From positions 1-54,578 of the IMG/VR virus record IMGVR_UViG_3300025154_000124: 54,578 nucleotides of DNA, one strand, 5' to 3'. The notes beneath the pieces were generated by a model. The model ran no database searches. It saw nothing but the letters and a program-made list of their open reading frames with translations, and was not told the DNA's origin. Shown piece after piece: positions 5,390 to 49,904 of this stretch (within the stretch, counting starts at the first letter, position 1; every line of letters begins with the position of its first letter). This DNA comes from a virus (taxonomy: Duplodnaviria; Caudoviricetes). The translations under genes and the position numbers were made by a program.

Positions 5390-5956
5390 ATGGAACTCGA
5401 AAAGGAAAGCAAACTCATGGTCTCGCAGCCACGGCAACCGATCGGTAAATCGCAACTCTACACATTGCTCGTGGATGCGACCGGAGATCCGGTACTCGAC
5501 GTTGAGGGGAACAAGCAGGTTGTTGCACTGCAGTCCGTGGATGGTAAATTGCAGGTAACTGCGATCCTGGCTGCCAGCTCGGTAATAGCCGGTAAGTTTG
5601 GGATTGACCAGACTGCCGGACAGAATGTAGTGAGTTTTGGGGCTGCAGCACAGCCAGTTTCGATTACTGGAAGTTTAGCGAATATACCCGTCGAAATACA
5701 AGCATGTAAACCCGAAGTATCTTCTTCTCAAGATTCACAAATAGCCACAACTGCAAAGACATATGCCAGAGCCGAAGGTGCATCCCAAATAGAAGTGTAT
5801 GTAGAGTCTGGATATGCTCGGGTACGTACAGATGGTCAGCCCTGCACATCGACTACAGGTGAGCCTATCGCTTCGGGCTTTGGATCTGCTTGGCAAACTG
5901 GTTCAATTAGTATTTTCTACGTGCAGGAATCAATAGTAACGGTGGTGAGTAGGTAA
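5390..5956 (+). CDS. Putative tail/baseplate accessory protein
   Basis: 188-aa ORF with RBS; TAATG-coupled to the DGR target gene. Confidence 0.65.
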   Translation: MELEKESKLMVSQPRQPIGKSQLYTLLVDATGDPVLDVEGNKQVVALQSVDGKLQVTAILAASSVIAGKFGIDQTAGQNVVSFGAAAQPVSITGSLANIPVEIQACKPEVSSSQDSQIATTAKTYARAEGASQIEVYVESGYARVRTDGQPCTSTTGEPIASGFGSAWQTGSISIFYVQESIVTVVSR

Positions 5957-7311
5957 TGCTACAGCGTGACTTATTTCGCAAACAATTTGCCGTAGCAAGC
6001 GATGTGATAGTGCATGATGTGTATGGGGTATCATGGGATAAAACAGCATCCCCGATACTAACTCGCACGGATTCAGCCCTCGGATTAGTCGCTAACGCAG
6101 GGATAGGCAATGGAGTAGTCCAAAACGATTTTGACAACATACCCTTATTTAAAGCCATCCACGAGGTAACGGACGATTTGGGGAATGTGTTTATACGTAT
6201 ACCCAAATTCTACATCCGGAAAACAGACAGTGCAGGACTTAAAACCGTGCAAGTTTGTGGGACAAAAAGACCTGGCTTTTATCGTCCGTGGTGCTTTTGG
6301 GACTTTACGAACGGCAAGGAATTGCCCTATATCGACGTAGGAAAGCACAAGGCATCTCTGGGAGTTGGTAATAAGCTAGAATCAAAGCCCGACTTGTACC
6401 CGCTAATTAATAAAAACATCGTTGACTTTAGGACTTACGCTCGTAACAATAATGTCGATGGGGCAAAAGGGTACCAACAGTTAGATACCCACGTTATCGA
6501 TGTCCTGCAAACTTTGTTCAGGGTTGAATTCGCAACGTTAAATTCACAAGCAGTTATGCAGGGATTCACCGCTGGGCAATACACAGCCACACATTTGGCA
6601 ACTGTGGCCGAAGGTAACACTAACAGAATTGTCTTAGCAAACGCATACGCAGACCTCTACCGAGTTGGTCAGGCGATTTCCGTCGGAACATCACAAGGCG
6701 GCAACCAGATATTCTATGGACGGACAATAACGTCCATAGATGTTTACGACGCAAGTAACAAGGCAATTAGCTTCGACGGCACCCCTGTGAATATCGCTAT
6801 TGGCAACATGCTGTACAATACAGGGTGGAAAAACGGATTCGCCAGTGGCATAACAGCAACAAGCGGCAGTTTAGTTACTAACGATGGGAAGTACCCGTGC
6901 ACCTACCGAGGTATCGAATCTCCGCTTGGAGACGTGTGGCAGTTTGTCGATGGTTATAACATAAACGAGAGGCAAGCGTGGATTGCTAAAAACGCGGCAG
7001 ATTATGCCAGCAATGTCTTTGCTAGTCCGTATGAGCAATTAGGTTATGTAAACGGAGCGGTAGACGGCTATCCGAAGGAAATGGGATATGATCCAAACAA
7101 CCAATTTGCCGAGCTGCCATCTGTAGTAGGCGGTGCAAGTACAACGTATTACAGCGATTACTACTACCAGGCTACTGGGCAACGCATTGCCCTCTTCGGT
7201 GGTTCCTGGGTCTATGGCGCGAGTGCGGGCCTTTCGTACTGGAGCTTGGGCAATTCCTCGTCGTATGCGAGTGTGGGCGTCGGCGGGCGGCTTCTTAAGA
7301 AACCTCTTTAG
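5956..7311 (+). CDS. DGR target protein, probable receptor-binding/tail protein with C-terminal CLec-like variable domain
   Basis: VR lies at the 3' end. GIESPLGDVWQFVDG resembles the GNVWEW motif, and GGSW...GGRL matches the C-terminus typical of DGR CLec targets. Located in the tail module. Confidence 0.9.
   Translation: MLQRDLFRKQFAVASDVIVHDVYGVSWDKTASPILTRTDSALGLVANAGIGNGVVQNDFDNIPLFKAIHEVTDDLGNVFIRIPKFYIRKTDSAGLKTVQVCGTKRPGFYRPWCFWDFTNGKELPYIDVGKHKASLGVGNKLESKPDLYPLINKNIVDFRTYARNNNVDGAKGYQQLDTHVIDVLQTLFRVEFATLNSQAVMQGFTAGQYTATHLATVAEGNTNRIVLANAYADLYRVGQAISVGTSQGGNQIFYGRTITSIDVYDASNKAISFDGTPVNIAIGNMLYNTGWKNGFASGITATSGSLVTNDGKYPCTYRGIESPLGDVWQFVDGYNINERQAWIAKNAADYASNVFASPYEQLGYVNGAVDGYPKEMGYDPNNQFAELPSVVGGASTTYYSDYYYQATGQRIALFGGSWVYGASAGLSYWSLGNSSSYASVGVGGRLLKKPL
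7187..7290 (+). repeat. DGR variable repeat (VR)
   Basis: 104-nt ungapped match to 7382-7485 with 17 mismatches, each opposite an A in TR (11 A>G, 5 A>T, 1 A>C). Confidence 0.96.
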
Positions 7312-7316
7312 GGGGT

Positions 7317-7338
7317 TTGGGGGCGCGCACGCCTCCAA
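7317..7338 (+). other. GC-rich hairpin/cruciform downstream of VR/IMH
   Basis: TTGGGGGCG-CGCA-CGCCTCCAA: 9-bp stem with one G-T, 4-nt loop, just after the target stop codon. Confidence 0.75.
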
Positions 7339-7362
7339 TAAGGTAACGAGACAACAGAACAT

Positions 7363-7616
7363 AGGGATATAGGGTGCATGCTTGCCCACTTCGGTGGTAA
7401 CTGGAACAATGGCGCGAATGCGGGCCTTTCGTACTGGAACTTGAACAATTCCTCGTCGAATGCGAATGTGAACATCGGCAGGCAGACTCTTATTAGAAAC
7501 TTTCAAAACTATTTGCATCCTATATTCCTCACCCCTTGGTGGAAATTTCGCCGCGAAGAACAGGGATTAGTAGGTTTCTCGAAATTCCCTGAGGCTAATA
7601 AGAAGGTAGGAATTTT
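7363..7616 (+). ncRNA. Predicted structured DGR template RNA (TR plus flanks)
   Basis: 7363-7378 pairs with 7514-7529 (16 bp, two G-U). A further stem is CAGGGA/TCCCTG at 7561-7591. Ends are approximate. Confidence 0.6.
7382..7485 (+). repeat. DGR template repeat (TR)
   Basis: AAC/AAT-rich copy of VR with 25 adenines; diverges from VR at non-A positions from 7487 (IMH vs IMH*). Confidence 0.96.
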
Positions 7617-8681
7617 GTGAAACGGGTAGGTTATCTCTTTGAAAAAGTGTGTGAGCTTGAAAATATAAAGCAAGCAATCATTAAGTCATCTCTCGGAAAA
7701 AGAAACCAAAAGAGGGTCAAGTATGTCATGGATAACATGGATACACATGCAGTTAAAATACGAAATTTGTTGTTAGATAAGAAGTATATCCCGTCTCCGT
7801 ATGACGTTAAAACAATCCAAGATGGAGCCACGAAAAAGACTCGCACTATCCATAAGCCCCGATATTTCCCGGATCAAATTATTCATTGGGCACTAATGCT
7901 GCAACTTCAACCGGTGATCATGAAAGGTATGTATGAATTTAGCTGCGGAAGCATTCCTGGAAGAGGTACTAGTTATGGGCAGAAGATTTTGAGGAAGTGG
8001 CTGGATACCGATTATAAGGGTACCAAGTATTGCCTCAAGATGGATATATCTAAGTTTTACCCTTCGGTCGATAATGAAATCCTGAAAGAGATGTTCAAGA
8101 AAAAGATCAAGGATGGTGATTGCCTGTGGTTAATTGATAGCATCATAGACAGTGCCGATGGGTTGCCAATAGGTAACTATACAAGCCAGTGGTTCTCGAA
8201 TTTCATTCTACAAGGCCTAGATCATTACATCAAAGAAAAGCTAGGCGTGAAATATTATGTGAGGTATGTCGATGATCTAGTTCTACTTGGAAGCAACAAG
8301 AAGAAATTACACCTTGCGAGGAAAATGATCTCCGAACACCTCAATAGTATAGGCTTGCAGCTCAAGGGGAATTGGCAGGTTTCTAAGGTTAGCGATAGGG
8401 ATATCGACTTCTTAGGGTTTAGGTTTTTTAGAGATAAAACCATCCTGAGAAAGCGAAATGCTCTAAGAATTCGTCGCAGAATAAAGAAAATCGGCAGGAA
8501 AAGGGAATTAAGCCTTAAAGATGCTTGCGCGGTCATATCGTACTGGGGATGGATCAAGAGAAGTAACAGTTTTAACTTTTACAATAAACACGTTAAGCCA
8601 ACGATCAGCGTTGGGCGTGCTAAGAAAGTGGTGAGCATATATGCCAGACGAGAAGCCATACGTTTACGCTCCGATTTTTGA
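7617..8681 (+). CDS. DGR reverse transcriptase
   Basis: KMDISKFYPS, GLPIGNYTSQ (DGR-type GxxxSQ), YVRYVDD and IDFLG motifs; 354 aa, basic; no maturase/endonuclease domain. Confidence 0.95.
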   Translation: MKRVGYLFEKVCELENIKQAIIKSSLGKRNQKRVKYVMDNMDTHAVKIRNLLLDKKYIPSPYDVKTIQDGATKKTRTIHKPRYFPDQIIHWALMLQLQPVIMKGMYEFSCGSIPGRGTSYGQKILRKWLDTDYKGTKYCLKMDISKFYPSVDNEILKEMFKKKIKDGDCLWLIDSIIDSADGLPIGNYTSQWFSNFILQGLDHYIKEKLGVKYYVRYVDDLVLLGSNKKKLHLARKMISEHLNSIGLQLKGNWQVSKVSDRDIDFLGFRFFRDKTILRKRNALRIRRRIKKIGRKRELSLKDACAVISYWGWIKRSNSFNFYNKHVKPTISVGRAKKVVSIYARREAIRLRSDF

Positions 8682-8826
8682 GTTTGACCAATTAACGCAG
8701 TATCTTACGCAAATACCACCCGTTGACATGGGAGATCATTATTTTGTTGGTATTGCCGTAATGACAGCGTCTTCGGTTTTTGATGATGAGCTTGAGGATT
8801 TACTATTAGCCGAAATGGGGGCCTAA
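8641..8826 (+). CDS. Small hypothetical protein (possible tail-fibre assembly-type)
   Basis: 61-aa acidic ORF overlapping the RT 3' end. Confidence 0.5.
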   Translation: MPDEKPYVYAPIFEFDQLTQYLTQIPPVDMGDHYFVGIAVMTASSVFDDELEDLLLAEMGA

Positions 8827-8829
8827 ATA

Positions 8830-8997
8830 ATGACGAGAGATGAGTTTTTAACTAAAATGCTCGAAAAAGGTAAAGTTACGCAAGCGCAAGCCAATAGAAT
8901 TAAGGCAAAAGATTCCGCAAAAGAAACTTATCGTAAAGATAAAGCAAAGATGAACAAAAGCGAGATACAGGGTGTATTGGATACCTTATTGAGCTAA
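8830..8997 (+). CDS. Small basic hypothetical protein (55 aa, MTRDEFLTKMLEKGKVTQ...)
   Basis: Translated by hand; tight spacing to the previous gene; resembles small post-tail-fibre (XkdX-like) genes by position. Confidence 0.5.
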   Translation: MTRDEFLTKMLEKGKVTQAQANRIKAKDSAKETYRKDKAKMNKSEIQGVLDTLLS

Positions 8998-9027
8998 AGG
9001 CGTAGCCAGTTAAAGGGGATATATTTA

Positions 9028-9189
9028 GTGTGTAGTAATGTAATCGGTATTTGCGAGCACCTTCTGGAGTTAATCGACACGCAGGAAAGCACGATAGCAA
9101 AGCAAAATGAGATAATCGCGAGGCTTATGAACGAGGGTTTTGAGCAGGAGAATCTAATAAAGGTGCTGATGCGAGAACGCGGCGAATAA
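9028..9189 (+). CDS. Small coiled-coil hypothetical protein (53 aa)
   Basis: GTG start after AAAGGGGA; translated by hand. Confidence 0.5.
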   Translation: MCSNVIGICEHLLELIDTQESTIAKQNEIIARLMNEGFEQENLIKVLMRERGE

Positions 9190-9259: not shown

Positions 9260-9514
9260 GTGCTAATGACGGAGCAAGGGCTAATGTCTGATATTCGCGA
9301 GCGCCTAGCAAGGCTTGAGACAAAAATTGATAACTTAAATGACCTGAGCAAAAAGGTGGATGAGACAGCTAACAAGGTGGCTGAAATCGAAGCTCGGTCG
9401 AAGTCTAACACCCACCGCATTGATGCAATTGAAAAGAACCTAAACTGGCTCTGGCGTACAATCGTCGGGGCCGTTATTGTTGCCGGCATTGGGGCGCTGG
9501 CTATTTTTAAGTAG
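9260..9514 (+). CDS. XhlA-like hemolysin/holin-associated protein
   Basis: Coiled coil, SNTHRIDAIEKNLNWLWR, single C-terminal TM; directly before the endolysin. Confidence 0.8.
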   Translation: MLMTEQGLMSDIRERLARLETKIDNLNDLSKKVDETANKVAEIEARSKSNTHRIDAIEKNLNWLWRTIVGAVIVAGIGALAIFK

Positions 9515-9526
9515 GGAGGGATTATC

Positions 9527-10342
9527 TTGCGAGCAGTCATCAACTACGGTCACGGTCCCAAGAACGTCGGCAAAGATCCGGGAGCCATTGGGCCAACCGG
9601 ATATCAAGAGGCCACTCAAAACAAAGAGGTAGGCGATTTGGTTGTCGTTAAACTTAAGTCAAACGGTTGGAACATCCTAGCGGTCCAAGACGGTGATCTG
9701 GACGATGTCACCGACCAAGCAAACGACTTTAAGCCGGATGCTTTCCTTTCGATCCACGCTAACTCCTTTACAAGTCCAAGCGCAAACGGGATTGAAACAA
9801 TAGCGCTGGCGCCTGGTGGAATGGGGGAAAAGATAGCCCGAGAGATCCAGCGGGAGTTGGTAGCGGACACAGGGCTCACAGACCGGGGGGTAAAGTTTGC
9901 TAACTTGCACGTACTCAGGGAGACGAAGGGTTATCCTGCGGTACTGGTGGAGGTTGGGTTTATCTCTAACCCTACGGAAGAGGCGCTGATGAAGCAGGGT
10001 GAGTGGGATGAGCTTGTAGCGTCGGCTATTTGCCGTGGTTTCAGTAGGGCGCACGGAGAGCCCTATATAGAGTGGAAGAAGGGAGTGATAGACGTGTCCT
10101 TGGATGTAGCAGTTTTGCTGAACACCAAGGAAGACTACTGGGCCGGTGCTGATGCAGCGGAGAAGAACGGTAATTGCGCGGTGTTTGTGCGGGGCGTAGA
10201 TAAGTCGGTGCCCAAGGATGCGATGAGTGCTAAGAAGTTGATTGTGGTGGGTGGACCGACTACGGGACATGCGGGAGAGGTGTTACTGAGTGGACGAACT
10301 AAGTTCGACACGGCTGCAGAGGTTGGGAAATATCTAGGGTAG
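9527..10342 (+). CDS. Endolysin, N-acetylmuramoyl-L-alanine amidase (Amidase_3) with C-terminal wall-binding region
   Basis: GHG..DPGA, SIHANS, LHVLRET and AVLVEVGFISN motifs; CWB2-like IVVGG...LSGRTKFDTA at the C-terminus. Confidence 0.93.
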   Translation: MRAVINYGHGPKNVGKDPGAIGPTGYQEATQNKEVGDLVVVKLKSNGWNILAVQDGDLDDVTDQANDFKPDAFLSIHANSFTSPSANGIETIALAPGGMGEKIAREIQRELVADTGLTDRGVKFANLHVLRETKGYPAVLVEVGFISNPTEEALMKQGEWDELVASAICRGFSRAHGEPYIEWKKGVIDVSLDVAVLLNTKEDYWAGADAAEKNGNCAVFVRGVDKSVPKDAMSAKKLIVVGGPTTGHAGEVLLSGRTKFDTAAEVGKYLG

Positions 10343-12758: not shown

Positions 12759-13613
12759 ATGTATGAAATCATTGATGCCTCTTCATGGGAAAGAGATGAG
12801 TACAAAGGTAAAGGGTCAAAAGAGAAGATAATGCTGGTAGAGCCTGAAACTAGAAGATTGGTAATGTTTAAATACGCTACTGAGGGATCGGGAGATACTT
12901 GGTCAGAAAAAATTGCTTCAGAGATTGGAAAATGTATTGGGTATAATGTGCAAGAAGTTAAACTCGGCGTATTTAACGGTATCCATGGTTCGCTTTCATA
13001 TTGGTTTCTAGAACGTGGAGATCCTCTTTATGAGGGTGCTGATCTAGTGGAAAACGACGAGTTTGACGTACGTAGTAGACCTAATTTGCAGTTCATAAAA
13101 CAACTTTTAGACTGCGACAATGAAGGATTATTCCCCAAATTCATGGAAATTGTTATTTTTGATATTTTGATTGGCAATACTGATAGACACATGGAAAATT
13201 GGGGTATTATCAAAGATGAAAATGGTTTATCCTCATTAGCTCCAGCGTATGATAATAGTTCTAGTCTTGGTCGAGAATTCAATTCAAACCCAGTGAAACT
13301 AGGCATAAGACTTAAAAATTCTAGAGTCTTTGAACAGTATTGCAAAAAGGGAATTTACTTTTACGGGTGGCTTGGTGAAGAAAAGATTCCGCATTTAAAA
13401 TACTCAGAAATCATATATAGTAATTATTCGGATATTATATATCCTCACGTAATTAAGCTTAATAAGCTCACCGATCAACTTATTAATGACATTATCCGAA
13501 GAATACCTCACAATATTATGACGACAGATCTGAAGGATTTCGTTGTAAGGTTTCTTATTTATAGAAGGAATTATTTGTTGAACTTAATAAAGGGGGATAA
13601 TGATGAATGCTAA
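12759..13613 (+). CDS. HipA-like Ser/Thr kinase (lacking N-subdomain)
   Basis: GSKEK, MFK, WSEKIA, catalytic GNTDRHMENWG and LAPAYDNSSSL motifs. Confidence 0.88.
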   Translation: MYEIIDASSWERDEYKGKGSKEKIMLVEPETRRLVMFKYATEGSGDTWSEKIASEIGKCIGYNVQEVKLGVFNGIHGSLSYWFLERGDPLYEGADLVENDEFDVRSRPNLQFIKQLLDCDNEGLFPKFMEIVIFDILIGNTDRHMENWGIIKDENGLSSLAPAYDNSSSLGREFNSNPVKLGIRLKNSRVFEQYCKKGIYFYGWLGEEKIPHLKYSEIIYSNYSDIIYPHVIKLNKLTDQLINDIIRRIPHNIMTTDLKDFVVRFLIYRRNYLLNLIKGDNDEC

Positions 13614-14340
13614 AAAACAAAATGAACTTTGGTTGGCATGGAAAGACACTAATTCTCGCGAAAGATTTGTAGTTGGCCTCCTGCAGTATGGTTTAGAAGG
13701 GTATCGTTTTAAATATATTGAAAATGAAGGAACGAATAATCTTAGCGAGGCTCTGGAGCGAGGATTTAAGTTGTTACCAGCTTTTCCGGATAAGGCACAA
13801 GAATATCACCAGAAGGAATTATTCCAAGTTTTTCTTAATAGGCTACCGAGTAGAAAAAGAAAAGATACGCAGCTCTTTCTAGAAAAGAAGGGTCTTTCTT
13901 TAGATTGTAGCGATTATGAACTCTTAAAGAAAACAGGAGGAAAATTACCTACTGATTCATTAGAATTTGTTGAACCATTTACTTTCAAAAGTGGTGAAAC
14001 ATTTAATATTGAATTTTTCATTGCGGGTCTTAGGTATTATGAAATTGATAAGATTCCAAGCCAAGAATTGTTGCCTAACACTAAGTTATTATTGAAATTG
14101 GAGCCGGATAACCCATTTGACTCGCATGCTATTAAAGTGCTTACTTTAGATGCTAAGAAATTGGGACACGTTCCGGTATTTTATAGTAGGTATATTGATT
14201 TGGCTGTTAAAACGGGAGATATCACTTCAGTTATAATTTCTTTCGATCCGGAGTCAGATTACGGTGAGAAATTACTCATCAAGGTTAGCGGAAATTCTGA
14301 TTTAGCGCGGGTTATTGAGAATCTAGATTCGACGCCTTAA
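13600..14340 (+). CDS. HipS-like N-terminal domain + HIRAN domain protein
   Basis: VGLL...YRFKY...LPAFP...LFQVFLNRLP (HipA N-subdomain/HipS-like); IAGLRYY..LEPDNPFDSHAIKV..LGHVP (HIRAN); overlaps the kinase stop. Confidence 0.85.
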   Translation: MMNAKKQNELWLAWKDTNSRERFVVGLLQYGLEGYRFKYIENEGTNNLSEALERGFKLLPAFPDKAQEYHQKELFQVFLNRLPSRKRKDTQLFLEKKGLSLDCSDYELLKKTGGKLPTDSLEFVEPFTFKSGETFNIEFFIAGLRYYEIDKIPSQELLPNTKLLLKLEPDNPFDSHAIKVLTLDAKKLGHVPVFYSRYIDLAVKTGDITSVIISFDPESDYGEKLLIKVSGNSDLARVIENLDSTP

Positions 14341-15214: not shown

Positions 15215-15532
15215 TCATTTAAATAATACTACAACAATCCAATAAACGTGCAGCATCGTAACGAAAGTATAAGTAATTAAAGCTAATCCAAGACCATTGA
15301 TAACTAATCTACGTGATCTATTTCTAGAATTCCAGGATAAAACACCAAGGGCGATGGGTAGAAATACCTTCATTAATAAGAGGAGATTAGGGGTCCCCAA
15401 GAGAGGCAACATTATGGGGTTCGCCTCATTAATAGCACTAATCCTTAATCCCCAAAAGGTTAGAATGTAATCTGTTATGCAAAGAATTACAACAACTATT
15501 GATGCCAAAAGTATTTTACTATCGTAGGTCAC
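15215..15532 (-). CDS. DUF5658-like small membrane protein
   Basis: D..LT..GL....EANPIM motif plus three TM segments; AGGGAGG RBS. Confidence 0.7.
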   Translation of the reverse strand: MTYDSKILLASIVVVILCITDYILTFWGLRISAINEANPIMLPLLGTPNLLLLMKVFLPIALGVLSWNSRNRSRRLVINGLGLALITYTFVTMLHVYWIVVVLFK

Positions 15533-15564
15533 GCAAAAACCTCCCTAAGGCTATTTGCCCAAAG

Positions 15565-15590
15565 AAAAAAGGCGTCCATATAACGCCTTT
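15565..15590 (-). terminator. Probable terminator after pilin gene
   Basis: AAAAGGCGT-CCATATA-ACGCCTTTT inverted repeat with A/T tracts. Confidence 0.6.
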
Positions 15591-15605
15591 ATATTAATTA
15601 TCGGC

Positions 15606-16127
15606 TTATGGGGTAACTGTAATTGTTTTATCGGTCATAACATTTCCTAGGCTGTCGTGTGCAAAAATTTTTACAGACGTTATCTTACTAGATGTCTCTA
15701 CGGGGGCCACAACAATAAGGCCTTGCAACGTGGAACCTGTAGCGGTGTCTGTGCCGGTTACCGTGTTTAATACGGATAGGGCACCGGCAGCTGGAGCGGC
15801 TGCAATAGCCGGTATAGTAGTTAAGCCTGTAAATGGATTTTTTATTGCATTAGTAGAATCGTTAGTCGCGATGCCAGTAAACTGATTAAAAATATCGGTT
15901 CCAACGGCACTACCGGTTAGTTCGGCGCTAACCCAGCTTGATATTCTGCTCCGGACATATCCCTCAACCATTCTTTGGTTTGAGTCAATCCCCACAGACT
16001 TAGCTGTAGTTTTGATAATCCCAACCTTCGGCACAATCACGATTGCCAGGATGCCGATAACCGCAATAACGATCATGAGCTCAATAAGAGTGAATCCACT
16101 GTCCCTTTTTCGTTTCATTTCATCCAT
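15606..16127 (-). CDS. Type IV pilin / prepilin-type N-terminal cleavage-methylation protein
   Basis: Class III signal KRKRDSG|FTLIELMIVIAVIGILAIVIVP with Glu at +5. Confidence 0.93.
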   Translation of the reverse strand: MDEMKRKRDSGFTLIELMIVIAVIGILAIVIVPKVGIIKTTAKSVGIDSNQRMVEGYVRSRISSWVSAELTGSAVGTDIFNQFTGIATNDSTNAIKNPFTGLTTIPAIAAAPAAGALSVLNTVTGTDTATGSTLQGLIVVAPVETSSKITSVKIFAHDSLGNVMTDKTITVTP

Positions 16128-16351
16128 CCCCTTCTATGTGTATTTTACACCTGGACAAGTAACCTGCAAGACCCTTAACCAATAGCTCCTTTTTGGCATT
16201 TTTAAGGTCTTTGGTCCTATTGACTTACGTCTATTACCTTACATTGTACTCAACGCAGAGTGTTCTAGTCAATTAATTTTTTGAACTAATACAATGTTTT
16301 TGCATAGCGTAACCACTGTTTTAATGCTCACGATTCTTAATTGTTTTGCGA

Positions 16352-18757
16352 CTATTTGGCAGCGTTCTTTTCATCACCTCCTTTACTAGTAATCGGCGCT
16401 GGAAGGTGGGTGACGAACTTGGCATAGTTATCGTTGCACTTTATCAAGTTCAGGCTGTGGTAACGCTTTAAGCTCAGTAAATCCTCTTCAGTGTATGGGT
16501 ATAATTCACTTTTTAACTCATCGAAGTTCTTCTTATCGCTACCACTTATTAGCATATACGATGCGTTTGCGGTCCGTAGGTCCTCCCGGATCTGTTTGAT
16601 TTGATTTAAGTAATGGCAGCTTATAATAGGCTTCAGGTTAAATTTCGGGAGTTGGCTTAACTTCTTCGCTAGGAATTTCTCGGCGTTTCTAACCTGGTAT
16701 AACTCATCGATCTCTAAGTTAACCTTCGTCATTTTTGACCTATCCAGATTTTGCGCCTCAAATTGAGATTCCCGAATCTGTAGTGCCAGCCATATTTTAG
16801 TTAGCCAGTATGTTACATACACATCCCGCTCGTTGTCAGTCAGAAACATCCTCTGCGGCATCTTAATAACAATTAACTGATTCTCCTGGATCTCCTTTAC
16901 TAGATCGATGTTGTTTTCGCTGCCTTTTTTCAACATCGTTTCAAGGTAGGCGTTAACCTTTAGCTTCTGCAGCCGGTCGACTGCACCAGTGATTAGGTGC
17001 ATCCGGGTACCGACTACTTTACCCTTTTCAATAGTGTCCAACTCATGTAGGTAGCCAAGGTATTCCTCCATGTTTTCCGCCTGTTCTTTGGGTACCCGAT
17101 CAATAAATTCCTTACGTACTTTATAATTCATCAGTACCGCAAACACGTCCTTAATATTGCCGTTGGTTAGGAAAACGGTTAACGCAGCGCTCTCGAAATA
17201 CCTCCCCATCCTAGCGGTAAAATTAGCGTCATCCGCGTTTATGCTGTCCACCAATGTCATCAATAGAGCGGTCTGCTCTTTGGCGTTCTTATATTGGACA
17301 AAGGGATCTATGCTCGGCGGGACTTCGTTGTACCCCAAGCCTTGAAGGGTGTCCCAGTTATCGCACCGGAGCTCTAGTACTTTTTCCTGAGGGAATGCGC
17401 TGGCAATCTCGGTGCTTAATTGGCAGCTGCCTATATAGTCGGGGATAATAACGCACTCCCCAGCCTCGATAGCGTCTTTAGCTATGTTTGCCAAGAACTT
17501 AGATTTGCCGGCGCGATTCGGGCCAATTAAGACAAGTCCTAACATTCTGTACTCAGGGTCAGTACTCAAATAACTTTTTTGGCTAGTACCTTTAAACGTA
17601 TTAGTACCTACGCACATAACCCCGGTAAGAAGTTCTTCGGGTACTTCCGATTCAAGCGTTCCGATCCGTTCGATGAACTTGTGCTTCTCCAGTAGCTCCC
17701 TACCCGGTAGCGCGATAAAATTAGAGCACTCATTTTCACTAGCCTTGAAGGATGTGGCACCCCTTATTCTAGTGCCTAACGGATTAAACTTACCATACAA
17801 ACGCTTATGGGTTAAAGAGTTATCCTCCGTGATCGTATCAAAGCTCTGGGCAAGACTCTTGGCATTGTTGTACTGCCGCATCTTATCCTTGCTTTCGCTT
17901 AGCACTAAAATTTGAGTATCCAGGACCATGCTTTTACCCTTGGACAGGGTGTATTCGGATATGATCTTGGTATTTCTAAGACTAGAGATAATCTGATCAA
18001 ATACTTCGTATTCCTTTGACCGAATCGCCTTTTTGTTTTCCCCAGCAAGGATTGCGCTCGCACTGTTAATAAGACCGTTTAATTGAGTGAAAGCCCATTT
18101 AAGCAGGTATCCTACGTTCGCTACATTTTGGTCAACCGGTAGATCGCTACGCAACTTCGCTATGGTTTTCTTATACTTAGTAGGCCACGAAAATTGGGAC
18201 GTAGGAATAAAGTTATAAAATATCCCTACCTTGTCGCCATCCTCCATGATGTCCACGATGTTAAGATTTGCCTCTAGTAGGTCATTATTGCGTTTGTCTA
18301 CGGCCAGACTTAAGCCGTCTTCCTTGCGATAAAACAGATGATACTTGGTTGCGGAATCCCCAAATGCGGGGATCGTGACTATATCGGCAACAGGTTTTGC
18401 CGTGAGTCCTTTCCAAGTGCTGGATAGCTTCTCTTGTAAAATGCTCGAGTATTGCTTAGGGACAATAAAGTAGAACTCGATACGCTTCTTTTCAATGTAT
18501 ATAAAGTAGGAAACTTTAGGTGCCGTGGCTATCGAATACTTAGTACCAAGCATAAATTCCCTGCCAAGGATAGTAATAAGCTTTCCGTGTTCAACCTTGA
18601 TGCTTCGCTTAATGTCTCGGTACAAAGATCCTATGGTCGTAGCGATATTAGCCGTGGCATTGTTTAATATAGAGTTGTTAGGCGTTAGCTTGATATACAT
18701 ATACTCGGGATGAACGAGGGTAATAAACTTGCTGAACTTAACGGATTTAGATTTCAT
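16352..18757 (-). CDS. VirB4/TraG/HerA-FtsK superfamily P-loop ATPase
   Basis: Walker A GPNRAGKS, Walker B LEIDELYQ; 801 aa with a long N-terminal region. Confidence 0.75.
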   Translation of the reverse strand: MKSKSVKFSKFITLVHPEYMYIKLTPNNSILNNATANIATTIGSLYRDIKRSIKVEHGKLITILGREFMLGTKYSIATAPKVSYFIYIEKKRIEFYFIVPKQYSSILQEKLSSTWKGLTAKPVADIVTIPAFGDSATKYHLFYRKEDGLSLAVDKRNNDLLEANLNIVDIMEDGDKVGIFYNFIPTSQFSWPTKYKKTIAKLRSDLPVDQNVANVGYLLKWAFTQLNGLINSASAILAGENKKAIRSKEYEVFDQIISSLRNTKIISEYTLSKGKSMVLDTQILVLSESKDKMRQYNNAKSLAQSFDTITEDNSLTHKRLYGKFNPLGTRIRGATSFKASENECSNFIALPGRELLEKHKFIERIGTLESEVPEELLTGVMCVGTNTFKGTSQKSYLSTDPEYRMLGLVLIGPNRAGKSKFLANIAKDAIEAGECVIIPDYIGSCQLSTEIASAFPQEKVLELRCDNWDTLQGLGYNEVPPSIDPFVQYKNAKEQTALLMTLVDSINADDANFTARMGRYFESAALTVFLTNGNIKDVFAVLMNYKVRKEFIDRVPKEQAENMEEYLGYLHELDTIEKGKVVGTRMHLITGAVDRLQKLKVNAYLETMLKKGSENNIDLVKEIQENQLIVIKMPQRMFLTDNERDVYVTYWLTKIWLALQIRESQFEAQNLDRSKMTKVNLEIDELYQVRNAEKFLAKKLSQLPKFNLKPIISCHYLNQIKQIREDLRTANASYMLISGSDKKNFDELKSELYPYTEEDLLSLKRYHSLNLIKCNDNYAKFVTHLPAPITSKGGDEKNAAK

Positions 18758-18768
18758 CTCAATACCTC

Positions 18769-19389
18769 CTACTCTAGATTTAAGTAAGGAGCTGGATCCA
18801 CCGAGCGTCTACCCTGATCAAAGCGTATTTCGAAGTGTACGTGCGGACCGGTTGACCTTCCAGTATTCCCTGACAGGGCGATAATTTCACCTTGTTTAAC
18901 CGGTTGACCAACGATTACTAATACCTGGCTGTTGTGGGCATACATTGTTTGGGTACCGTCTGGATGGTTAAGCTCTACTACATTGCCGACTATGTTCCCC
19001 ATATATCCTGCATCGTGTACCGTTCCGGACTTACTGGCGAGGACCCTAGTGCCTTCACTTACGCCAAAGTCTATACCGTGATGAAATCCCCCGTCACGAG
19101 GTCCGAAAGGGGAGGAAACAGGACCAACGACAGGAACAACATAATCCGACGCTGTAATAGGAGCTGCTTGAGCCGGTGGGCCAAGAACGGCCACAATCAT
19201 GATGTAAGAAACCAGTAATATCCCGGCATAACGAATACCCTGCTTTAGTCCGGCGACGTACAATATTACAAGTATGGTACAGCCAAGTATGGTAACTGTG
19301 TGCATATAGCTCACAAACAGATCGGGCTTAGCAGTTATCAGTGCGACGAGAGCCGCCAGTACTCCTCCCTTTAATGCAAGTGCAAGCAT
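18769..19389 (-). CDS. Membrane-anchored M23 family peptidoglycan peptidase
   Basis: SSPFGPR, HHGIDF, YAHN and GNTGRSTGPHVHFE motifs; N-terminal TM segments. Confidence 0.92.
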   Translation of the reverse strand: MLALALKGGVLAALVALITAKPDLFVSYMHTVTILGCTILVILYVAGLKQGIRYAGILLVSYIMIVAVLGPPAQAAPITASDYVVPVVGPVSSPFGPRDGGFHHGIDFGVSEGTRVLASKSGTVHDAGYMGNIVGNVVELNHPDGTQTMYAHNSQVLVIVGQPVKQGEIIALSGNTGRSTGPHVHFEIRFDQGRRSVDPAPYLNLE

Positions 19390-21209: not shown

Positions 21210-22427
21210 TTAGAGGTTTTTCATGAGTTCGCTGAACTTTTTGGAGGCCTCTTTTTTCATTGTTTTTGTGGTATGCATATAGACGTATCTTGTTGTTTTA
21301 TCATCTTTATGACCGAGCCTCTCCATAATCTCCGGGAGGCTGACGCCCGCCTCAGCAAGTAAAGAAGTGTGGGTATGTCGTAATGAGTGGGGGGTCAACG
21401 ATGCGTTCAAGCTAGCGAGCTTTAACAGGCGACACATGCGTCTTTCTATGAAATTAGTAGTCTCTGGATAACCAAGAAATTTATCCTCCTGTGCAAATAT
21501 GAAATCCTTATCATGGTAAGAATCCCTGTTTTTCATGAGTGTAATATTTTGGCTTGACTTGTGCTTTTTTAACTCTTCTAAAACAACTCCATCAACGGAA
21601 ATTTTCCTTTTAGATGCCTTTGTCTTCGGTGGAGATAATTCGTAGGCCGTCGCCTTGTTGGTTGGATTGTAGTAAGTCTTGGTGATGTTGACGCTACCTT
21701 CGATAAAATCAATGTCTTTCCATTTCAGTGCACATAGCTCCCCTATTCTCACGCCTGTGTACGCCAAAAATAGAAAAATCAGATAATCCTTATCTAATCC
21801 TTTATCATTGGCAGTTTGCAGAAAAAGGGATAACTCGTCTTTTTCTAGATACTTCTCTATTTCCTCTTCCTCCTCTAACTCCTCGATCGTTTTAGTTGTT
21901 TTCGGCACTGCAGCATACCTAGTCGGGTCATTCTTGATTAACTCAAGTTCTACAGCTTTATTAAATATCATGCGTCCTGTTGTGTGCGCTCCTATGATTG
22001 AGCTTTCTGAAAATCCCCTATCTTTTAAGGTAATTAGGGCATCTTGGTATTGCTTGCGTGTTACATCTTTTAATTTTAGTTTTGCAAAGAAAGTCTTTAT
22101 TCTTGCAATCTCAATCTCCCTGACCCTAATCGTACTCTTCTTTTTGGGTTTGCCTGTGTTTTTGTAATAGCCTAGCCATTCCTTGGAAAATTGCTCGAAC
22201 GTGATATTTGACTCCTTAACATAAGTTCCTTGCTCCACTTCTTGAATCACTATACCGCATGCAAGTTGCGCAGCCTTCTTTGTTTTGAAGCCTCCTTTCT
22301 TCTCCTGCTTACGGTCTCCTGTGCTTGGATCGACGCCAACATCAACGATATACGACCAGGTTGCACCACAGCTACATTTCTTTTTGTCAGAGCAGATACA
22401 CTTTGGCCTGTAATAATATCCTTGCAT
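21210..22427 (-). CDS. int: Tyrosine integrase
   Basis: N-terminal arm-binding domain (GGFKTKKAA); TGVRIGE, HSLRHTH and LGH...T..VY catalytic motifs. Confidence 0.96.
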   Translation of the reverse strand: MQGYYYRPKCICSDKKKCSCGATWSYIVDVGVDPSTGDRKQEKKGGFKTKKAAQLACGIVIQEVEQGTYVKESNITFEQFSKEWLGYYKNTGKPKKKSTIRVREIEIARIKTFFAKLKLKDVTRKQYQDALITLKDRGFSESSIIGAHTTGRMIFNKAVELELIKNDPTRYAAVPKTTKTIEELEEEEEIEKYLEKDELSLFLQTANDKGLDKDYLIFLFLAYTGVRIGELCALKWKDIDFIEGSVNITKTYYNPTNKATAYELSPPKTKASKRKISVDGVVLEELKKHKSSQNITLMKNRDSYHDKDFIFAQEDKFLGYPETTNFIERRMCRLLKLASLNASLTPHSLRHTHTSLLAEAGVSLPEIMERLGHKDDKTTRYVYMHTTKTMKKEASKKFSELMKNL

Positions 22428-30863: not shown

Positions 30864-31781
30864 ATGTCAGTAAAGGAAACGAAAGCCCAAGAACAGTCTC
30901 AGGAAATCGCACTTTTAGGTGACGGAGCCGTATTTGTAAAACGGACCGCCTCTGGCCTTGTCAAGGCTGTTAAGGCTCAAATAAAACTTGAGGAGAAGAA
31001 AGGCCATCTCGCGGAAATTCAAGGGAAGGTGATGGTCACCGGAGCCGGATACAACGAAATGAATAAGGTTGCAGGGGTTTCTGTTATCACTCCCGAGAAA
31101 TTAACCTTGCCGGATGGATCGGTGGTTGTTAATCCATACCCTATCGTAGATCCTGTTTCGGGAAGTATCTCAAAAGTTTGGGTTAAAAAGATGGCAATCG
31201 GCTTAAGCCCAATTGGCAATCTAGTTATCACCACTTCCACCCTGCTTTATGATATCCAAATGTATTTCATTCAGGACCTTATGAAAAAGATTAAAAAAAA
31301 TTCTATTGCTGGTCGACTTTGCATGGAATCCATGCTGACAGATCAGGACAGATTGAAAGGAATGTTTTGCCGAATTGAAGGTGAAATGGGAATTTGGGCG
31401 GACATTAATAACATAGATACAATGACCTGCATTGAGACATTCATACAAAACAAGCTCTTTGCTGAACGAAAAGCCCAAACCATTGCCGAACGCAATGCAA
31501 TGAAGAAACATCCTGCGCTTGCAACAACCTTAGTTGTTCCAACCGGACCGGAAAAGGCCAGAACTGCCGTTGTTAACGTGGTTGGATTCTCCCATGATTT
31601 TTCCCAGCAAGAACTATTAGATATTGCCCAAAAAGCATCCGACGGAGAACCGATCACAGTGAACAACAAAAAGGTTGAGGTCGTTGATATCTCATCCAGC
31701 GAACTTACCGAAGAAGATTTGGCAACCAGTACTGATGAGGAAGAAAATACAGAAGGCTCAAGTGGGGGTGATCTTCTTTGA
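30864..31781 (+). CDS. Putative DNA recombination/annealing protein
   Basis: First gene of the SbcC-UvrD cluster; acidic C-terminal tail; family not recognised. Confidence 0.4.
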   Translation: MSVKETKAQEQSQEIALLGDGAVFVKRTASGLVKAVKAQIKLEEKKGHLAEIQGKVMVTGAGYNEMNKVAGVSVITPEKLTLPDGSVVVNPYPIVDPVSGSISKVWVKKMAIGLSPIGNLVITTSTLLYDIQMYFIQDLMKKIKKNSIAGRLCMESMLTDQDRLKGMFCRIEGEMGIWADINNIDTMTCIETFIQNKLFAERKAQTIAERNAMKKHPALATTLVVPTGPEKARTAVVNVVGFSHDFSQQELLDIAQKASDGEPITVNNKKVEVVDISSSELTEEDLATSTDEEENTEGSSGGDLL

Positions 31782-33982
31782 TCACAGCGATAACCATGCG
31801 CAACTTCAAGGGCCAGATGGAGTCGCAAAAGTTAACTGGTAAAGACATCTTCGTCGGCCCAAATGGCAAGGGTAAGACGACTCGGTTACAAGCTGTCGGT
31901 ATTGCCCTCCTTGGTTACGTACCCGGCAAGGGCAAATTGCCAGCTGAGACGTTTAAATTAGCCAGTGCGGATAATATGTCAGTTGGGCTTGTGACTGATA
32001 ATCTGACATTTGCCCGTACCTTTACGAGGACGGAAAAGAGCGGTAAGGATGGGGCTAGTAACGTTACAGTCTCCCAAGACATTACCTTATCACCCAGTCG
32101 GGGCGAAAAGAAGGCAGTGGAGAAAGAAGCGCGGATTGCCTTCGAGGTTGGAAACTTTCCGGTAATGCTGGATTTTAATGAGTTCCTTTCCTTGTCAGAC
32201 TCAAAACGTCGGGATTTTATCTATGGATTATCGGCTATCAAGACGGATTCGTGGGATCGCACCAAAGTCGAGAAACACATAAGGACTAAACTCCTCACAT
32301 TGGATCTCGAAGTAAATAATCCTGATCAATACCAAATCATGAGCGGACTCATAGTGGACGCAATGAAGGAATATCCGGAACACGATGACATTCAGGCCGG
32401 ATTACAGTCGATGATCGAATGGGCCAAAGCTAAGCAGACCCACTGGAACGATGAGAAGAAGAATGCTGTTGGTGCTGTCAAGAAGTTGGCCGACATGAAG
32501 AATCAGCTGGAAGAAACCGACCGTAATATCGTGCAGCACAAAGCCGAATTAGAGCAGCTGCAGCAACAGCTTACTGACAGTGAAAGTCAACTCGCTAGAG
32601 ATCGAGAACGAAAACGTGCAATTGATCAGCGCCTTGTTAGGATAAGTGAACTCGGGACAATGATTGAAACGCTGTCTAAGAGTCAGGCTGAACCTGCAGT
32701 TAATTATGACCTGATGATTACGGAGCTCCGAGGACAGATCAAAGAGTTTGACTTTAAGGCAACGTTCGCCAGATTTGATCAAGAATTGCAAGCATTAACC
32801 AATCAGCTCAAAGAGGCAAGGGAACAGGATCGAGCCACCATCACTGCATTAGCCCAAATCCAGGCGGAAAAAACGGTACTTAATTCGACCTTAAAGCAGA
32901 TCGATGAGCAGTCAAAGAAAAATGGCTCCGGCAGGGTCTGTGTTATTCATCCCAAGATTGGATGCGACAAGGATTTTAGCAAGGCAGCGACAGTCTTTAG
33001 TCAACAGCTCGTTGTATTGGAGCAAAGAGAAGCCGACCAAAAGGCTGTACAAAAGGAAGTAAGGATTCGGATCGAAGGCCTTGAAACCGGTAAAAACGAC
33101 ATCGATGCGCAACGTACAGAGACGCATAAAAATCAAACGACCTTGAATCAGGTGAACGAGGAAACTAGAAAATCGATTGCTAATCTAGAGAAGAAAAAAG
33201 CAGATGAGGTCAACGCTGCAGCGCGAATCAGCGACCAGCTGAAGATGTACCAGGACGAATTGACTAGGATTAAGAGTTTACCACCCGAGGTGATCGCCCC
33301 CTTGGATATCTTGGAGAAACAAAGCGAAGGGCGTAGGGCGCAGATCAAGGAGCTCAAGGTCAAGCTAGAGGGGCAAGAGAAGGCCAAGATTACGCTGAGT
33401 AGTCTTAAGTCCACGATGATCGACTCCAAGACTGCAAATTATAATGCGCAGTGCATAAAGGACCTTGCTGAGTCCCTGGGCGCAAAAGGCCTACAAGGCG
33501 AGCTAGTGAAAGGGATACTTGAGCCGATACGCTCTGATATTCAAACGAATCTTGAACTTATGGGAATTGACAGTGAATTTTACTTTTCGACGGAATCTGA
33601 TACCGGCAAAGAAGTGTTCCAATTTGGCTGGAAGAATAGCCATGGTGACGAACGCAACTTTGATGCTCTGAGCACTGGGCAACAACTGATTCTTTTAATT
33701 GCAATGCTTGTTACCTTCTTGGAAAGATCTAATCCACCACTTAAAGTTTTAGCGATCGACAATATAGAGAATCTTGATCCGAGGAATTTATGTCGGGCCT
33801 TGGTTGGCATGAACAAACTCTCGAGTAAGATCGATAACATTATCCTTTCTGGAGTGGTCGATGTTTATCGGAGTAAGTGGATTGACGGTCAAGAAGTTAG
33901 GACACCGCTTCCGGAATTGGAAGGCTGGGGAGTAACAGACTTAGGTATTGAGGAGGTGAAGACAGATGCCAGGATGTTATAA
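31778..33982 (+). CDS. SbcC/Rad50-like ABC ATPase with long coiled coil
   Basis: NFKG, Walker A GPNGKGKT, coiled coil with central CVIHPKIGC, signature LSTGQ, Walker B LAIDNIE. Confidence 0.85.
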   Translation: MITAITMRNFKGQMESQKLTGKDIFVGPNGKGKTTRLQAVGIALLGYVPGKGKLPAETFKLASADNMSVGLVTDNLTFARTFTRTEKSGKDGASNVTVSQDITLSPSRGEKKAVEKEARIAFEVGNFPVMLDFNEFLSLSDSKRRDFIYGLSAIKTDSWDRTKVEKHIRTKLLTLDLEVNNPDQYQIMSGLIVDAMKEYPEHDDIQAGLQSMIEWAKAKQTHWNDEKKNAVGAVKKLADMKNQLEETDRNIVQHKAELEQLQQQLTDSESQLARDRERKRAIDQRLVRISELGTMIETLSKSQAEPAVNYDLMITELRGQIKEFDFKATFARFDQELQALTNQLKEAREQDRATITALAQIQAEKTVLNSTLKQIDEQSKKNGSGRVCVIHPKIGCDKDFSKAATVFSQQLVVLEQREADQKAVQKEVRIRIEGLETGKNDIDAQRTETHKNQTTLNQVNEETRKSIANLEKKKADEVNAAARISDQLKMYQDELTRIKSLPPEVIAPLDILEKQSEGRRAQIKELKVKLEGQEKAKITLSSLKSTMIDSKTANYNAQCIKDLAESLGAKGLQGELVKGILEPIRSDIQTNLELMGIDSEFYFSTESDTGKEVFQFGWKNSHGDERNFDALSTGQQLILLIAMLVTFLERSNPPLKVLAIDNIENLDPRNLCRALVGMNKLSSKIDNIILSGVVDVYRSKWIDGQEVRTPLPELEGWGVTDLGIEEVKTDARML

Positions 33983-49606: not shown

Positions 49607-49904
49607 TGAATGGGTACCGCATGCAAAACAGATTAAAATGGCGGAGTTGCTTCTAAATCCAGAGGACAGAAGAACAAAACAAGAGAAGTGCAAAGAAGTT
49701 GACATTACCATGAAAACCCTTTGGAAATGGATGAAGGATAAACGGTATGTCGACTATGTGAATTCACAGATAGACCAATATACAAACGCTGAATTGGCAG
49801 AGGTGTGGAAGGCCTTAATCAACCAATGCAAGCGCGGAAATATACAGGCCATCAAATTATTTTTCGAGATGAAAGAACTTCATCCTGACACAAAAGCGTG
49901 GTGA
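49560..49904 (+). CDS. phBC6A51-like HTH protein (small-terminase-like)
   Basis: KQ..MAELL...TLWKW...VWKAL...GNIQAIKLFFE. Confidence 0.65.
   Translation: MVMVEKKPSQKVRKGNEWVPHAKQIKMAELLLNPEDRRTKQEKCKEVDITMKTLWKWMKDKRYVDYVNSQIDQYTNAELAEVWKALINQCKRGNIQAIKLFFEMKELHPDTKAW

Follow-up and report, generated by a model that had tools for sequence, protein, structure and literature searches.

The DGR of this temperate, siphovirus-like phage from groundwater and sediment metagenomes is an ordinary member of an already described accessory-less kind, and the loss of Avd is a trait of its lineage of reverse transcriptases (RTs) and no peculiarity of this phage. What is new here is an RNA structure, predicted from sequence comparison across the lineage, in which one helix brackets the template repeat (TR) and a second helix crosses the first as a pseudoknot. 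The explanation that best accounts for these observations, and that we consider likely, is a DGR that is complete without Avd, as in the rest of its lineage, and whose working unit is the RT together with one structured RNA. The window refers throughout to the whole 54.6-kb stretch of DNA that was analysed.

Cassette layout and past activity

The cassette and its upstream neighbour comprise the following features.

5390-5956, 188-aa ORF, from the ORF list
5956-7311, plus strand, DGR target gene encoding a tail-fibre/receptor-binding protein of 451 aa with the variable repeat at its 3' end (ORF; phrog_5302 tail protein, E 1.4e-50; relatives have homologues upstream of the RT)
7187-7297, plus strand, variable repeat (VR), 111 nt, 83% identical to the TR
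7317-7338, plus strand, GC-rich DNA hairpin right after the target stop codon, with a 9-bp stem and a 4-nt loop (-8.7 kcal/mol, z -3.0)
7382-7492, plus strand, TR, 111 nt, from repeat comparison with the VR
7617-8681, plus strand, DGR reverse transcriptase, 354 aa, GTG start (RVT_1, E 5e-14; phrog_1423, E 8e-107)

The TR and VR differ at 19 positions, 18 of them at TR adenines. All 27 adenines of the TR lie in codon positions 1 or 2, and 18 of these are altered in the VR. The VR has been rewritten in an adenine-specific manner in the past, as the first-pass annotation had read from its divergence, and the DGR is presumably still active today. Besides this repeat pair the cassette has further marks of a DGR, with an RT of DGR type, as judged by phrog_1423, adjoining the TR and an IMH-like end and the GC-rich hairpin 3' of the VR. 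The end of the VR, which is richer in G and C than that of the TR, is 14 nt from the target stop codon, and relatives show GC-rich palindromes, different in sequence, at this position after the stop (alignment columns 1-60). The RT is colinear with bRT, its best solved relative (8ub7_A; residues 5-303 against 6-299, E 4.6e-27), has no extra domain and contains YVDD and IGNYTSQ, which we take to be hallmark motifs of DGR RTs. The target protein was recognised through its PHROG tail-protein match; in Pfam it had no match at E ≤ 1, to a C-type-lectin fold or otherwise.

The gaps on either side of the TR, given in the first-pass annotation as about 70 and 130 nt, measure 70 nt from the target stop (7312-7381) and 124 nt to the RT (7493-7616). 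Neither can accommodate an Avd of about 120 aa, as had been argued there, and the neighbours are as described, a 188-aa gene and three ORFs of 53-61 aa. Two further ORFs that overlap the TR were considered and rejected as genes. An 80-aa ORF (7378-7620) continues the reading frame of the TR; only in 3 of 27 relatives does that frame extend to the RT start, and its peptide after the TR is not conserved. The other, an antisense ORF of 159 aa (7039-7518), is a product of the VR and TR read backwards and is bridged in 8 of 55 loci. Nine public runs, all of them available as contigs, were found, and four were compared with the window at that level, at which minor variants are hidden and no read-level sign of present activity was obtained: two contain the identical sequence and may be its source, one has a relative about 93% identical and one has a short identical contig.

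Absence of Avd from the window and its lineage

No Avd was found in the window. Six-frame searches over its whole length gave no match at E ≤ 10 to phrog_3206 ('Avd protein of DGR') or PF05635 and none to PF22296 (bAvd), while in Pfam and PHROGs the three small ORFs (53-61 aa, two of them acidic) and the 188-aa ORF had no match to an Avd family at E ≤ 1. A Pfam scan of 71 window ORFs showed neither an HRDC nor a MutS domain. PF05635 missed all five control records with a positional Avd, giving weak matches by hmmscan alone, and is therefore unsuitable as a test for Avd; the 0 matches that this same weak profile gave in 46 relatives are to be read accordingly. It was replaced by phrog_3206, which matched all eight positional Avd ORFs, all ten control records and the Avd of BPP-1 (E 5.9e-31). 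The earlier remark that no Avd-like ORF lies elsewhere in the window has thus withstood the profile search suggested alongside it, run here for Avd, HRDC and MutS. With no Avd in the cassette or the genome record, the layout is not the BPP-1-type Architecture B (avd-TR-RT); it has the TR-RT core of Architecture A1, without an accessory gene by the profile tests for Avd, HRDC and MutS.

The absence is clade-wide. Lineage members include Lactobacillus phage LBR48, Butyrivibrio phage Arawn, Faecalibacterium phage FP_Epona, Psychrobacillus phage Perkons and the crAss-like cr56_1. With phrog_3206 there was no Avd in any of 39 records with an RT 36-75% identical to that of the window, in LBR48 and Arawn, or in Perkons, FP_Epona and cr56_1 (0 of 3), and an Avd in all ten records with an RT at most 35% identical. 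On a tree of 47 RTs the presence or absence of Avd changes once, on a branch with an SH-aLRT of 98. The gap between target stop and TR follows the same division: it is 45-279 nt in 55 lineage loci and 471-2214 nt in ten loci with distant RTs, where it contains a basic ORF of 135-159 aa. The suggestion in the first-pass annotation of a minimal, Avd-independent DGR is supported by these data, but not as anything special to this phage, since the lineage is large and known from Wu et al. (2018).

The IMG/VR record is 70% complete (CheckV). Supply of an Avd in trans, which the first-pass annotation had also considered, might come from the missing 30% of the phage, the host or a co-resident DGR. For BPP-1, avd, TR and brt placed on a plasmid are reported to function in trans (Wu et al., 2018; PMC5758913). 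The window extends between the tape-measure gene and the small-terminase genes, and the missing part is therefore probably the head and packaging module. None of the 17 lineage records in IMG/VR that are at least 90% complete has an Avd, nor has any of the five named phages, and the passages of Wu et al. (2018) that treat accessory-less genomes report no avd elsewhere in them. Among 14 host MAGs carrying such prophages, all of them incomplete assemblies, 11 have no Avd and three carry one somewhere; in the one case examined (G061) the Avd is on a separate contig beside an RT of its own, 27.5% identical to that of the window. The window and its closest relatives also have no counterpart of the Avd-binding stem-loop of BPP-1 in the 16-nt linker that follows the TR. 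Supply in trans is thus unlikely as a rule, and for this phage we regard it as quite improbable.

The small downstream ORFs

The TR-RT unit lies between the fibre gene and three small ORFs, which were compared across 83 loci.

8641-8826, plus strand, 61-aa acidic ORF (net -11) that overlaps the 3' end of the RT gene; by synteny part of the tail-fibre module, a probable fibre chaperone or adaptor, not DGR-specific
8830-8997, plus strand, 55-aa basic helical ORF; phage module gene, not DGR-specific (homologues in 2 of 83 loci, and one in the RT-less L085)
9028-9189, plus strand, 53-aa acidic ORF upstream of the XhlA holin; not DGR-specific (homologues in 3 of 83 loci)

It had been proposed that one of these tiny ORFs is an unrecognised accessory factor in place of Avd. 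The 61-aa ORF would be the best candidate: in almost every lineage locus the RT 3' end is overlapped or adjoined by an acidic ORF, the 61-aa family itself keeps its position in ten close relatives, and the overlap suggests translational coupling with the RT. The conservation of 8641-9189 beside homologous RTs, which had been put forward as a check, points the other way, since homologues of all three ORFs also occur where the RT is missing or a remnant. The 61-aa ORF has homologues in 40 further loci, seven of which lack an RT although 1000 nt or more of upstream sequence is present. In L085, L097, L110, L111 and L120 the homologue follows a homologous tail-fibre gene by 7-52 nt with neither TR nor RT. 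At the same position three more distant relatives (L014, L023 and L024) have an ORF with Phage_tail_APC / phrog_4912, tail-fibre assembly, and in L008 the ORF is fused to CBM_5_12. The family itself has no Pfam or PHROG match; its nearest named Atlas clusters are fibre-assembly families and, all scores being below 0.9, are leads only. Moreover the 61-aa protein is acidic, whereas Avd, a four-helix-bundle protein of about 120-160 aa, is basic and RNA-binding. The 55-aa and 53-aa ORFs are rare among the loci, and the 53-aa homologues in L091 and L100 stand where the RT is a remnant. From synteny the three ORFs are probably genes of the tail-fibre and lysis modules, the 61-aa product probably being a fibre chaperone or adaptor, and a role for any of them as a substitute for Avd is highly improbable.

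A conserved RNA structure around the template repeat

The stretch between the target gene and the RT is predicted to form two helices and a known RNA domain.

7364-7378, plus strand, helix P1 5' strand, immediately upstream of the TR; 15 pairs with 7514-7528
7488-7496, plus strand, pseudoknot helix PK 5' strand, the TR 3' end with its IMH*-like end; pairs with 7595-7603
7514-7528, plus strand, helix P1 3' strand; a 4-bp hairpin (7530-7541) and three invariant adenosines come next
7530-7605, plus strand, Rfam RF03021 RT-18 RNA, a hairpin and three-tier stem-loop (65.6 bits against a gathering score of 41.3)

The match to RT-18 lies above the gathering threshold and covers positions 1-84 of the 84 in the model. 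Its 3' tail is the PK 3' strand (7595-7603), which overlaps the Shine-Dalgarno sequence of the RT.

Both helices covary. In P1, 11 of 15 pairs change on both sides and 93.1% of cells are paired; in PK all nine pairs change on both sides, and this helix has alignment-free support too. For the structure as a whole the paired share is 91.1%, where slid controls reach 41-46%, and both partners vary in 31 of its 39 pairs. Folded as a single sequence, 7355-7616 is unexceptional (z -1.06). The structure is commoner where Avd is absent: 38 of the 49 Avd-less loci have a PK of 7 bp or more, compared with one of the nine loci with Avd, and Arawn is among the 11 Avd-less loci in which the helix is shorter; RT-18 was found in 9 of 11 Avd-less loci against 0 of 4 with Avd. 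One strand of PK is pyrimidine-rich and the other purine-rich, like an anti-Shine-Dalgarno and Shine-Dalgarno pair, so that some of this complementarity could act in translational control instead of in priming. The TR is followed, in the window and the relatives closest to it, by a 16-nt linker that is variable and has no structure. Over the 45 nt directly after the TR the window folds at 0.0 kcal/mol, with a mean MFE of -5.0 in 50 Avd-less loci and -7.2 in seven with Avd, a crude stem-loop test that does not separate the groups. A combined-term literature search on RT-18 found no paper, and one on DGR RNA pseudoknots, judged mainly from the listing of papers, found none.

A model for an Avd-less DGR

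It would seem that the DGR diversifies the tip of the tail-fibre protein, and that its working unit is most likely the RT and one structured RNA spanning about 7360-7606. In this RNA P1 would clamp both flanks of the TR, followed in order by the short hairpin, the three invariant adenosines and the RT-18 domain. Pairing of the TR 3' end with the RT-18 3' tail in PK would close a pseudoknot and present the TR end to the RT for cis-primed cDNA synthesis, by analogy with the TR:Sp duplex of template and primer in BPP-1; PK may, on that analogy, be the priming duplex. The adenine-mutagenised cDNA would then home to the VR, with the IMH-like end and the GC hairpin beyond the VR as its guides. We infer that the RT and this RNA suffice without a further protein.

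A non-homologous helper might nevertheless be needed, be it an RNA chaperone of the host or a protein that the phage encodes elsewhere, in either case invisible to the Avd, HRDC and MutS profiles. According to a review, bRT alone is inactive without Avd; about half of the window ORFs have no family, and CH1-type accessory genes have no public profile. Against such a helper, the target, TR and RNA are all that is conserved beside the RT across siphoviruses, the myovirus-like LBR48 and crAss-like phages, no homologue of the flanking 221-, 188- and 90-aa ORFs occurs among the 83 loci compared, and the HRDC and MutS domains are absent from the scanned ORFs, so that we think a helper of this kind unlikely.

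A bolder form of the two-component model, which we offer tentatively and slightly doubt, is that the RNA has taken over the job of Avd. The P1/PK pseudoknot would wrap RT-18 and let the RT alone hold, prime and stop on its template, and PK would also mask the ribosome-binding site of the RT, tying RT translation to folding of the template. If true, this would be a natural two-component DGR of one protein and one RNA of about 250 nt, with an RNA topology unlike that of BPP-1, and a simpler chassis for targeted mutagenesis.

Comparison with known systems

How reverse transcription proceeds in Avd-less DGRs, about one quarter to one third of all DGRs, has been a question since Wu et al. (2018), and the mechanistic work found uses the bRT-Avd pair of BPP-1. 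The window alone leaves that picture unchanged, because its lineage typically has no Avd. The comparison, on the other hand, gives a testable RNA model, with a clamp resembling cPRT-Stop, an RT-18 domain and a crossing helix that relatives with an Avd largely lack. It also strikes the small ORFs next to the RT from the list of candidate helpers, and a compact RT and RNA cassette of about 1.35 kb would be a practical start for reconstitution and engineering.

Wu et al. (2018, Nucleic Acids Res 46:11; PMC5758913) assign 75 of 372 DGRs to the accessory-less Architecture A, report no avd elsewhere in those genomes, propose 'Avd-independent mutagenic homing' and state that avd is missing from their Lineage 3. 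Theirs was the only work found on such homing. The window shares with their Architecture A1 (target-TR-RT) the TR-RT core without an accessory gene, the target directly upstream, adenine-specific mismatches and no avd elsewhere, a likeness of layout.

The closest isolated phage is LBR48 (NC_027990), whose accessions are absent from one supplementary file of Wu et al. (2018). Its RT is 53% identical to that of the window and is likewise followed by an overlapping acidic ORF, a holin and an endolysin; it has an RT-18 RNA (59.2 bits) and no Avd. It differs in having a phage backbone with baseplate genes, a target gene that spans the record ends and a PK helix of only 6 bp.

The Rfam family found in the window is RT-18, whereas RT-10 is placed in BPP-1 by Weinberg et al. 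(2017; PMC5737381). In their treatment of these motifs Weinberg et al. give RT-18 no function and speculate that more RT motifs act in DGRs. The RF03021 model leaves the 3' tail unpaired, whereas in the window the tail is predicted to pair with the TR 3' end, and the TR-bracketing helix lies outside the model.

BPP-1 (mtd-avd-TR-Sp-brt; 8ub7) is alike in its colinear RT, in a target-recognition hairpin at the position of the GC hairpin after the VR, in a duplex involving the TR 3' end and in the cPRT-Stop duplex, to which P1 would correspond (bioRxiv 10.1101/2023.10.23.563531). It differs from the window in having an Avd gene and, as described in the same preprint, an Avd-binding stem-loop after the TR. 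The arrangement of the duplexes also differs, since the window has the predicted partner strand of the TR 3' end at the extreme 3' end of its spacer, and the two duplexes would therefore cross in a pseudoknot, whereas those of BPP-1 nest.

The DGR and its phage

The diversity-generating retroelement (DGR) is positioned where the tail module ends, in what reads as a temperate siphovirus-like phage. The features relevant here are as follows.

3-1931: tape measure, followed by Dit and a Tal-like tail protein
5956-7311: target gene, 451 aa, tail protein (phrog_5302, E 1.4e-50)
7187-7297: variable repeat (VR)
7317-7338: GC-rich DNA hairpin 3' of the target stop codon (-8.7 kcal/mol, z -3.0)
7382-7492: template repeat (TR)
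7617-8681: reverse transcriptase (RT; RVT_1; phrog_1423, E 8e-107)
8641-8826, 8830-8997 and 9028-9189: three small ORFs downstream of the RT
9260-9514: XhlA-type holin, after the small ORFs
9527-10342: Amidase_3 endolysin, after the holin
21210-22427, minus strand: integrase; a CI-like repressor is also present

Replication genes and methyltransferases are found further along the window and small-terminase genes at its far end. As the gene order runs from tape measure to small terminase, the head and packaging module is most likely the part absent from the record, for which CheckV gives a completeness of 70% (54,578 bp). Three ORFs, at 49560-50356 and 52582-53268, have small-terminase PHROG matches; in between lie a ParB-methyltransferase fusion and a DnaD-like ORF, an unusual order at the record edge.

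Several other regions stand out. Right after the lysis genes (12759-14340) two overlapping ORFs encode a HipA_C-like kinase (284 aa) and a HIRAN-domain protein (246 aa), each matching part of one longer PHROG, phrog_26212; the pair could form a moron of toxin or defence type. A minus-strand block (15215-19389), which separates the lysis module from the integrase, encodes DUF5658, a pilin-like protein whose N-terminus bears a methylation motif, a phrog_5156 protein of 801 aa and an M23 peptidase. In the early region (30864-33982) a 305-aa protein (phrog_32428) precedes a 734-aa AAA_23/AAA_21 ATPase (phrog_32642); the AAA_21 family name suggests ATPases of the abortive-infection type.

Of the 19 differences between VR and TR, 18 fall at TR adenines. 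All 27 TR adenines are in codon positions 1 or 2, and 18 are altered in VR. Given this adenine bias the DGR has rewritten its target at some past time, as the first-pass annotation had read from the VR. Within the target gene but far upstream of VR, a ~93% identical relative in a sediment-metagenome run has 79 other letters replacing 76 at 6887-6964.

Absence of Avd from the window and its RT lineage

The accessory protein Avd had been reported missing, with gaps too small to hold it, and both observations are borne out. The gaps are 70 nt from target stop to TR and 124 nt from TR to RT, and six-frame searches of the whole 54,578 bp gave no match to the Pfam Avd profiles PF05635 and PF22296 (bAvd) or to phrog_3206, the 'Avd protein of DGR' profile. 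Among these only the phrog_3206 result carries weight, because PF05635 failed on the positional Avd ORF in five of five control records while phrog_3206 matched all eight positional Avd-like ORFs (E 5e-19 to 2e-5), as well as the Avd of BPP-1, the Bordetella phage with the Avd-dependent model DGR (E 5.9e-31). A Pfam scan of 71 ORFs showed no HRDC or MutS domain; of the 86 ORFs in one call set, 18 lay outside it, 16 of them clearly named by PHROG and two antisense. CH1 is without a public profile. The RT is colinear with that of BPP-1 (residues 5-303 against 6-299 of 8ub7_A), the alignment revealing no extra domain able to stand in for Avd.

Relatives fetched through the RT comprised 80 IMG/VR loci and annotated phages. 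The stop-to-TR gap is 45-279 nt in the 55 loci with VR upstream and an RT at least 34% identical, compared with 471-2214 nt, containing an Avd-like ORF, in 10 loci with RTs at most 32% identical; at loci with distant RTs a basic ORF of 135-159 aa sits between VR and TR. Phrog_3206 matched none of 39 whole records of the close-RT group, which takes in 17 records at least 90% complete and the phages LBR48 and Arawn, nor any of Perkons, FP_Epona and cr56_1 (0/3), but all 10 records with distant RTs. On a tree of 47 RTs one change of Avd label suffices, on a branch with SH-aLRT 98; the tree is a quick, unrooted search omitting six Avd-less loci with RT ORFs below 300 aa and loci whose records were unsearched. 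Absence of Avd is thus a trait of the RT lineage.

Avd might still be borrowed in trans, as the first-pass annotation had suggested. Fourteen bacterial MAGs, titled as Clostridia or Bacilli, each have a prophage RT 41-59% identical; phrog_3206 (E<=0.01) had no match in 11 of them and a match in three, compared with five of six control genomes with distant RTs. One of these three was examined; its Avd gene sits on a different contig, immediately 5' of an RT of its own that is 27.5% identical to that of the window, and is part of a separate classical DGR. Borrowing is therefore less probable, though only lowered because the MAGs are incomplete.

The small downstream ORFs

One of the tiny ORFs had also been proposed as an accessory factor. 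The first, an acidic 61-aa ORF overlapping the RT end (8641-8826), is indeed kept at the same place beside the RT in 10 close relatives (alignments A3/A4), but it is also kept where there is no RT. A search with its alignment gave 40 further loci, of which 28 have an RT match upstream (only a remnant in L091, L100, L114 and L116), seven have at least 1000 nt upstream yet no RT, and five are too short to judge. In L085, L097, L110, L111 and L120, where TR and RT are both absent, 7-52 nt separate the homologue from the homologous fibre gene before it, and L113 retains only a TR remnant at this site, with no RT. Homologues of the other two ORFs likewise occur without an intact RT, the 55-aa ORF following in L085 and the 53-aa ORF in L091 and L100. 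We conclude that the TR-RT unit lies between the fibre gene and the genes that belong with it downstream, and that the small ORFs do not form part of the DGR; an accessory role is disfavoured, a moonlighting one being possible.

L091 and L100 retain only the RT C-terminal end, and L114 and L116 only its first ~52 residues. These decayed DGRs and that of L113 sit between the same fibre gene and a 61-aa-type ORF, and represent different stages of TR-RT unit loss.

More distant relatives encode an acidic protein of 110-176 aa at this site, often followed by XkdX; that of L014, L023 and L024 has the tail-fibre assembly domain Phage_tail_APC / phrog_4912. In L008 (3975-4805) a 276-aa protein joins the 61-aa-type domain to CBM_5_12, a carbohydrate-binding module. 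Fibre-assembly families are the closest named Atlas clusters, all below 0.9 and leads only.

A predicted pseudoknot in the template RNA

The TR-RT spacer matches the Rfam family RT-18 (RF03021) at 7530-7605 (65.6 bits; gathering score 41.3). RT-18 was detected in nine of the 11 Avd-less loci tested and none of four with Avd, one of which has RT-2. The available text of Weinberg et al (2017) gives RT-18 no function and locates RT-10 in the BPP-1 spacer.

Covariation in 27 distinct sequences (alignment A5) supports two helices. P1 (7364-7378 with 7514-7528) flanks TR; of its 15 pairs, 11 carry changes in both partners. On its 3' side come a hairpin of 4 bp and three adenosines that do not vary, and the two P1 pairs adjoining the hairpin are G:C in 26 of the 27 sequences. 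The second, PK, pairs the TR 3' end (7488-7496) with 7595-7603, the RT-18 tail that Rfam draws unpaired and that overlaps the RT Shine-Dalgarno sequence; here each of the nine pairs has changes in both partners, with pairing in 88.4% of cells. In an initial version of the structure pairing reached 91.2%, compared with 34-49% in slid controls; the whole structure with PK reached 91.1%, compared with 41-46%. These controls somewhat favour the structure, since the window and the Rfam consensus were its sources.

Independently of the alignment, a Watson-Crick helix of at least 7 bp joins the PK regions in 24 of the 27 sequences, in 15 distinct versions. Over all distinct loci such a helix occurs in 38 of 49 without Avd and one of nine with it, and at most 15 of 300 shuffles equalled PK in 34/49 and 1/9, respectively. 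As PK crosses P1, the RNA is predicted to be a pseudoknot.

PK may be the template-primer duplex. The last transferred adenine, TR 7486, is two bases from it, which fits, but at 7487 the repeats differ (C in TR, T in VR). Within 7595-7606, PK also takes up the 5'-most bases of the purine-rich ribosome-binding site, 10 nt ahead of the RT GTG start, and for this reason folding of the template RNA may throttle RT translation.

Comparison with other DGRs

In the available text of Wu et al (2018), avd is present in 275 of 372 DGRs, Architecture A, without accessory genes, accounts for 75 of 372, and no avd lies elsewhere in genomes of the latter; Avd-independent homing is proposed. In their numbering, 'Lineage 3 notably lacks avd'. 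The Avd-less lineage described here agrees with this account of Architecture A, and a minimal Avd-independent DGR is the best supported of the readings offered by the first-pass annotation, one already in print for DGRs of this kind. We found no paper describing such a DGR RNA pseudoknot, although supplementary material to Weinberg et al or to the bioRxiv paper cited below may show more. What is added is a covariation-backed RNA model setting the Avd-less lineage apart from its Avd-bearing relatives.

As far as the available text describes it, the BPP-1 cPRT Stop consists of a duplex, a short stem-loop and adenosines in A-minor contact with G:C pairs (bioRxiv 10.1101/2023.10.23.563531), the same order of elements as P1, its hairpin and the adenosines. 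BPP-1 also has an Avd-binding stem-loop after TR; the window and its close relatives have no counterpart, since the 16 nt from TR to the P1 3' strand are variable and unstructured. Over the wider clade, mean folding energies of the 45 nt after TR do not separate loci without Avd (-5.0 kcal/mol, 50 loci) from those with it (-7.2 kcal/mol, seven loci). By our reading of that paper's coordinates, the two corresponding duplexes are nested in BPP-1, whereas here P1 and PK cross.
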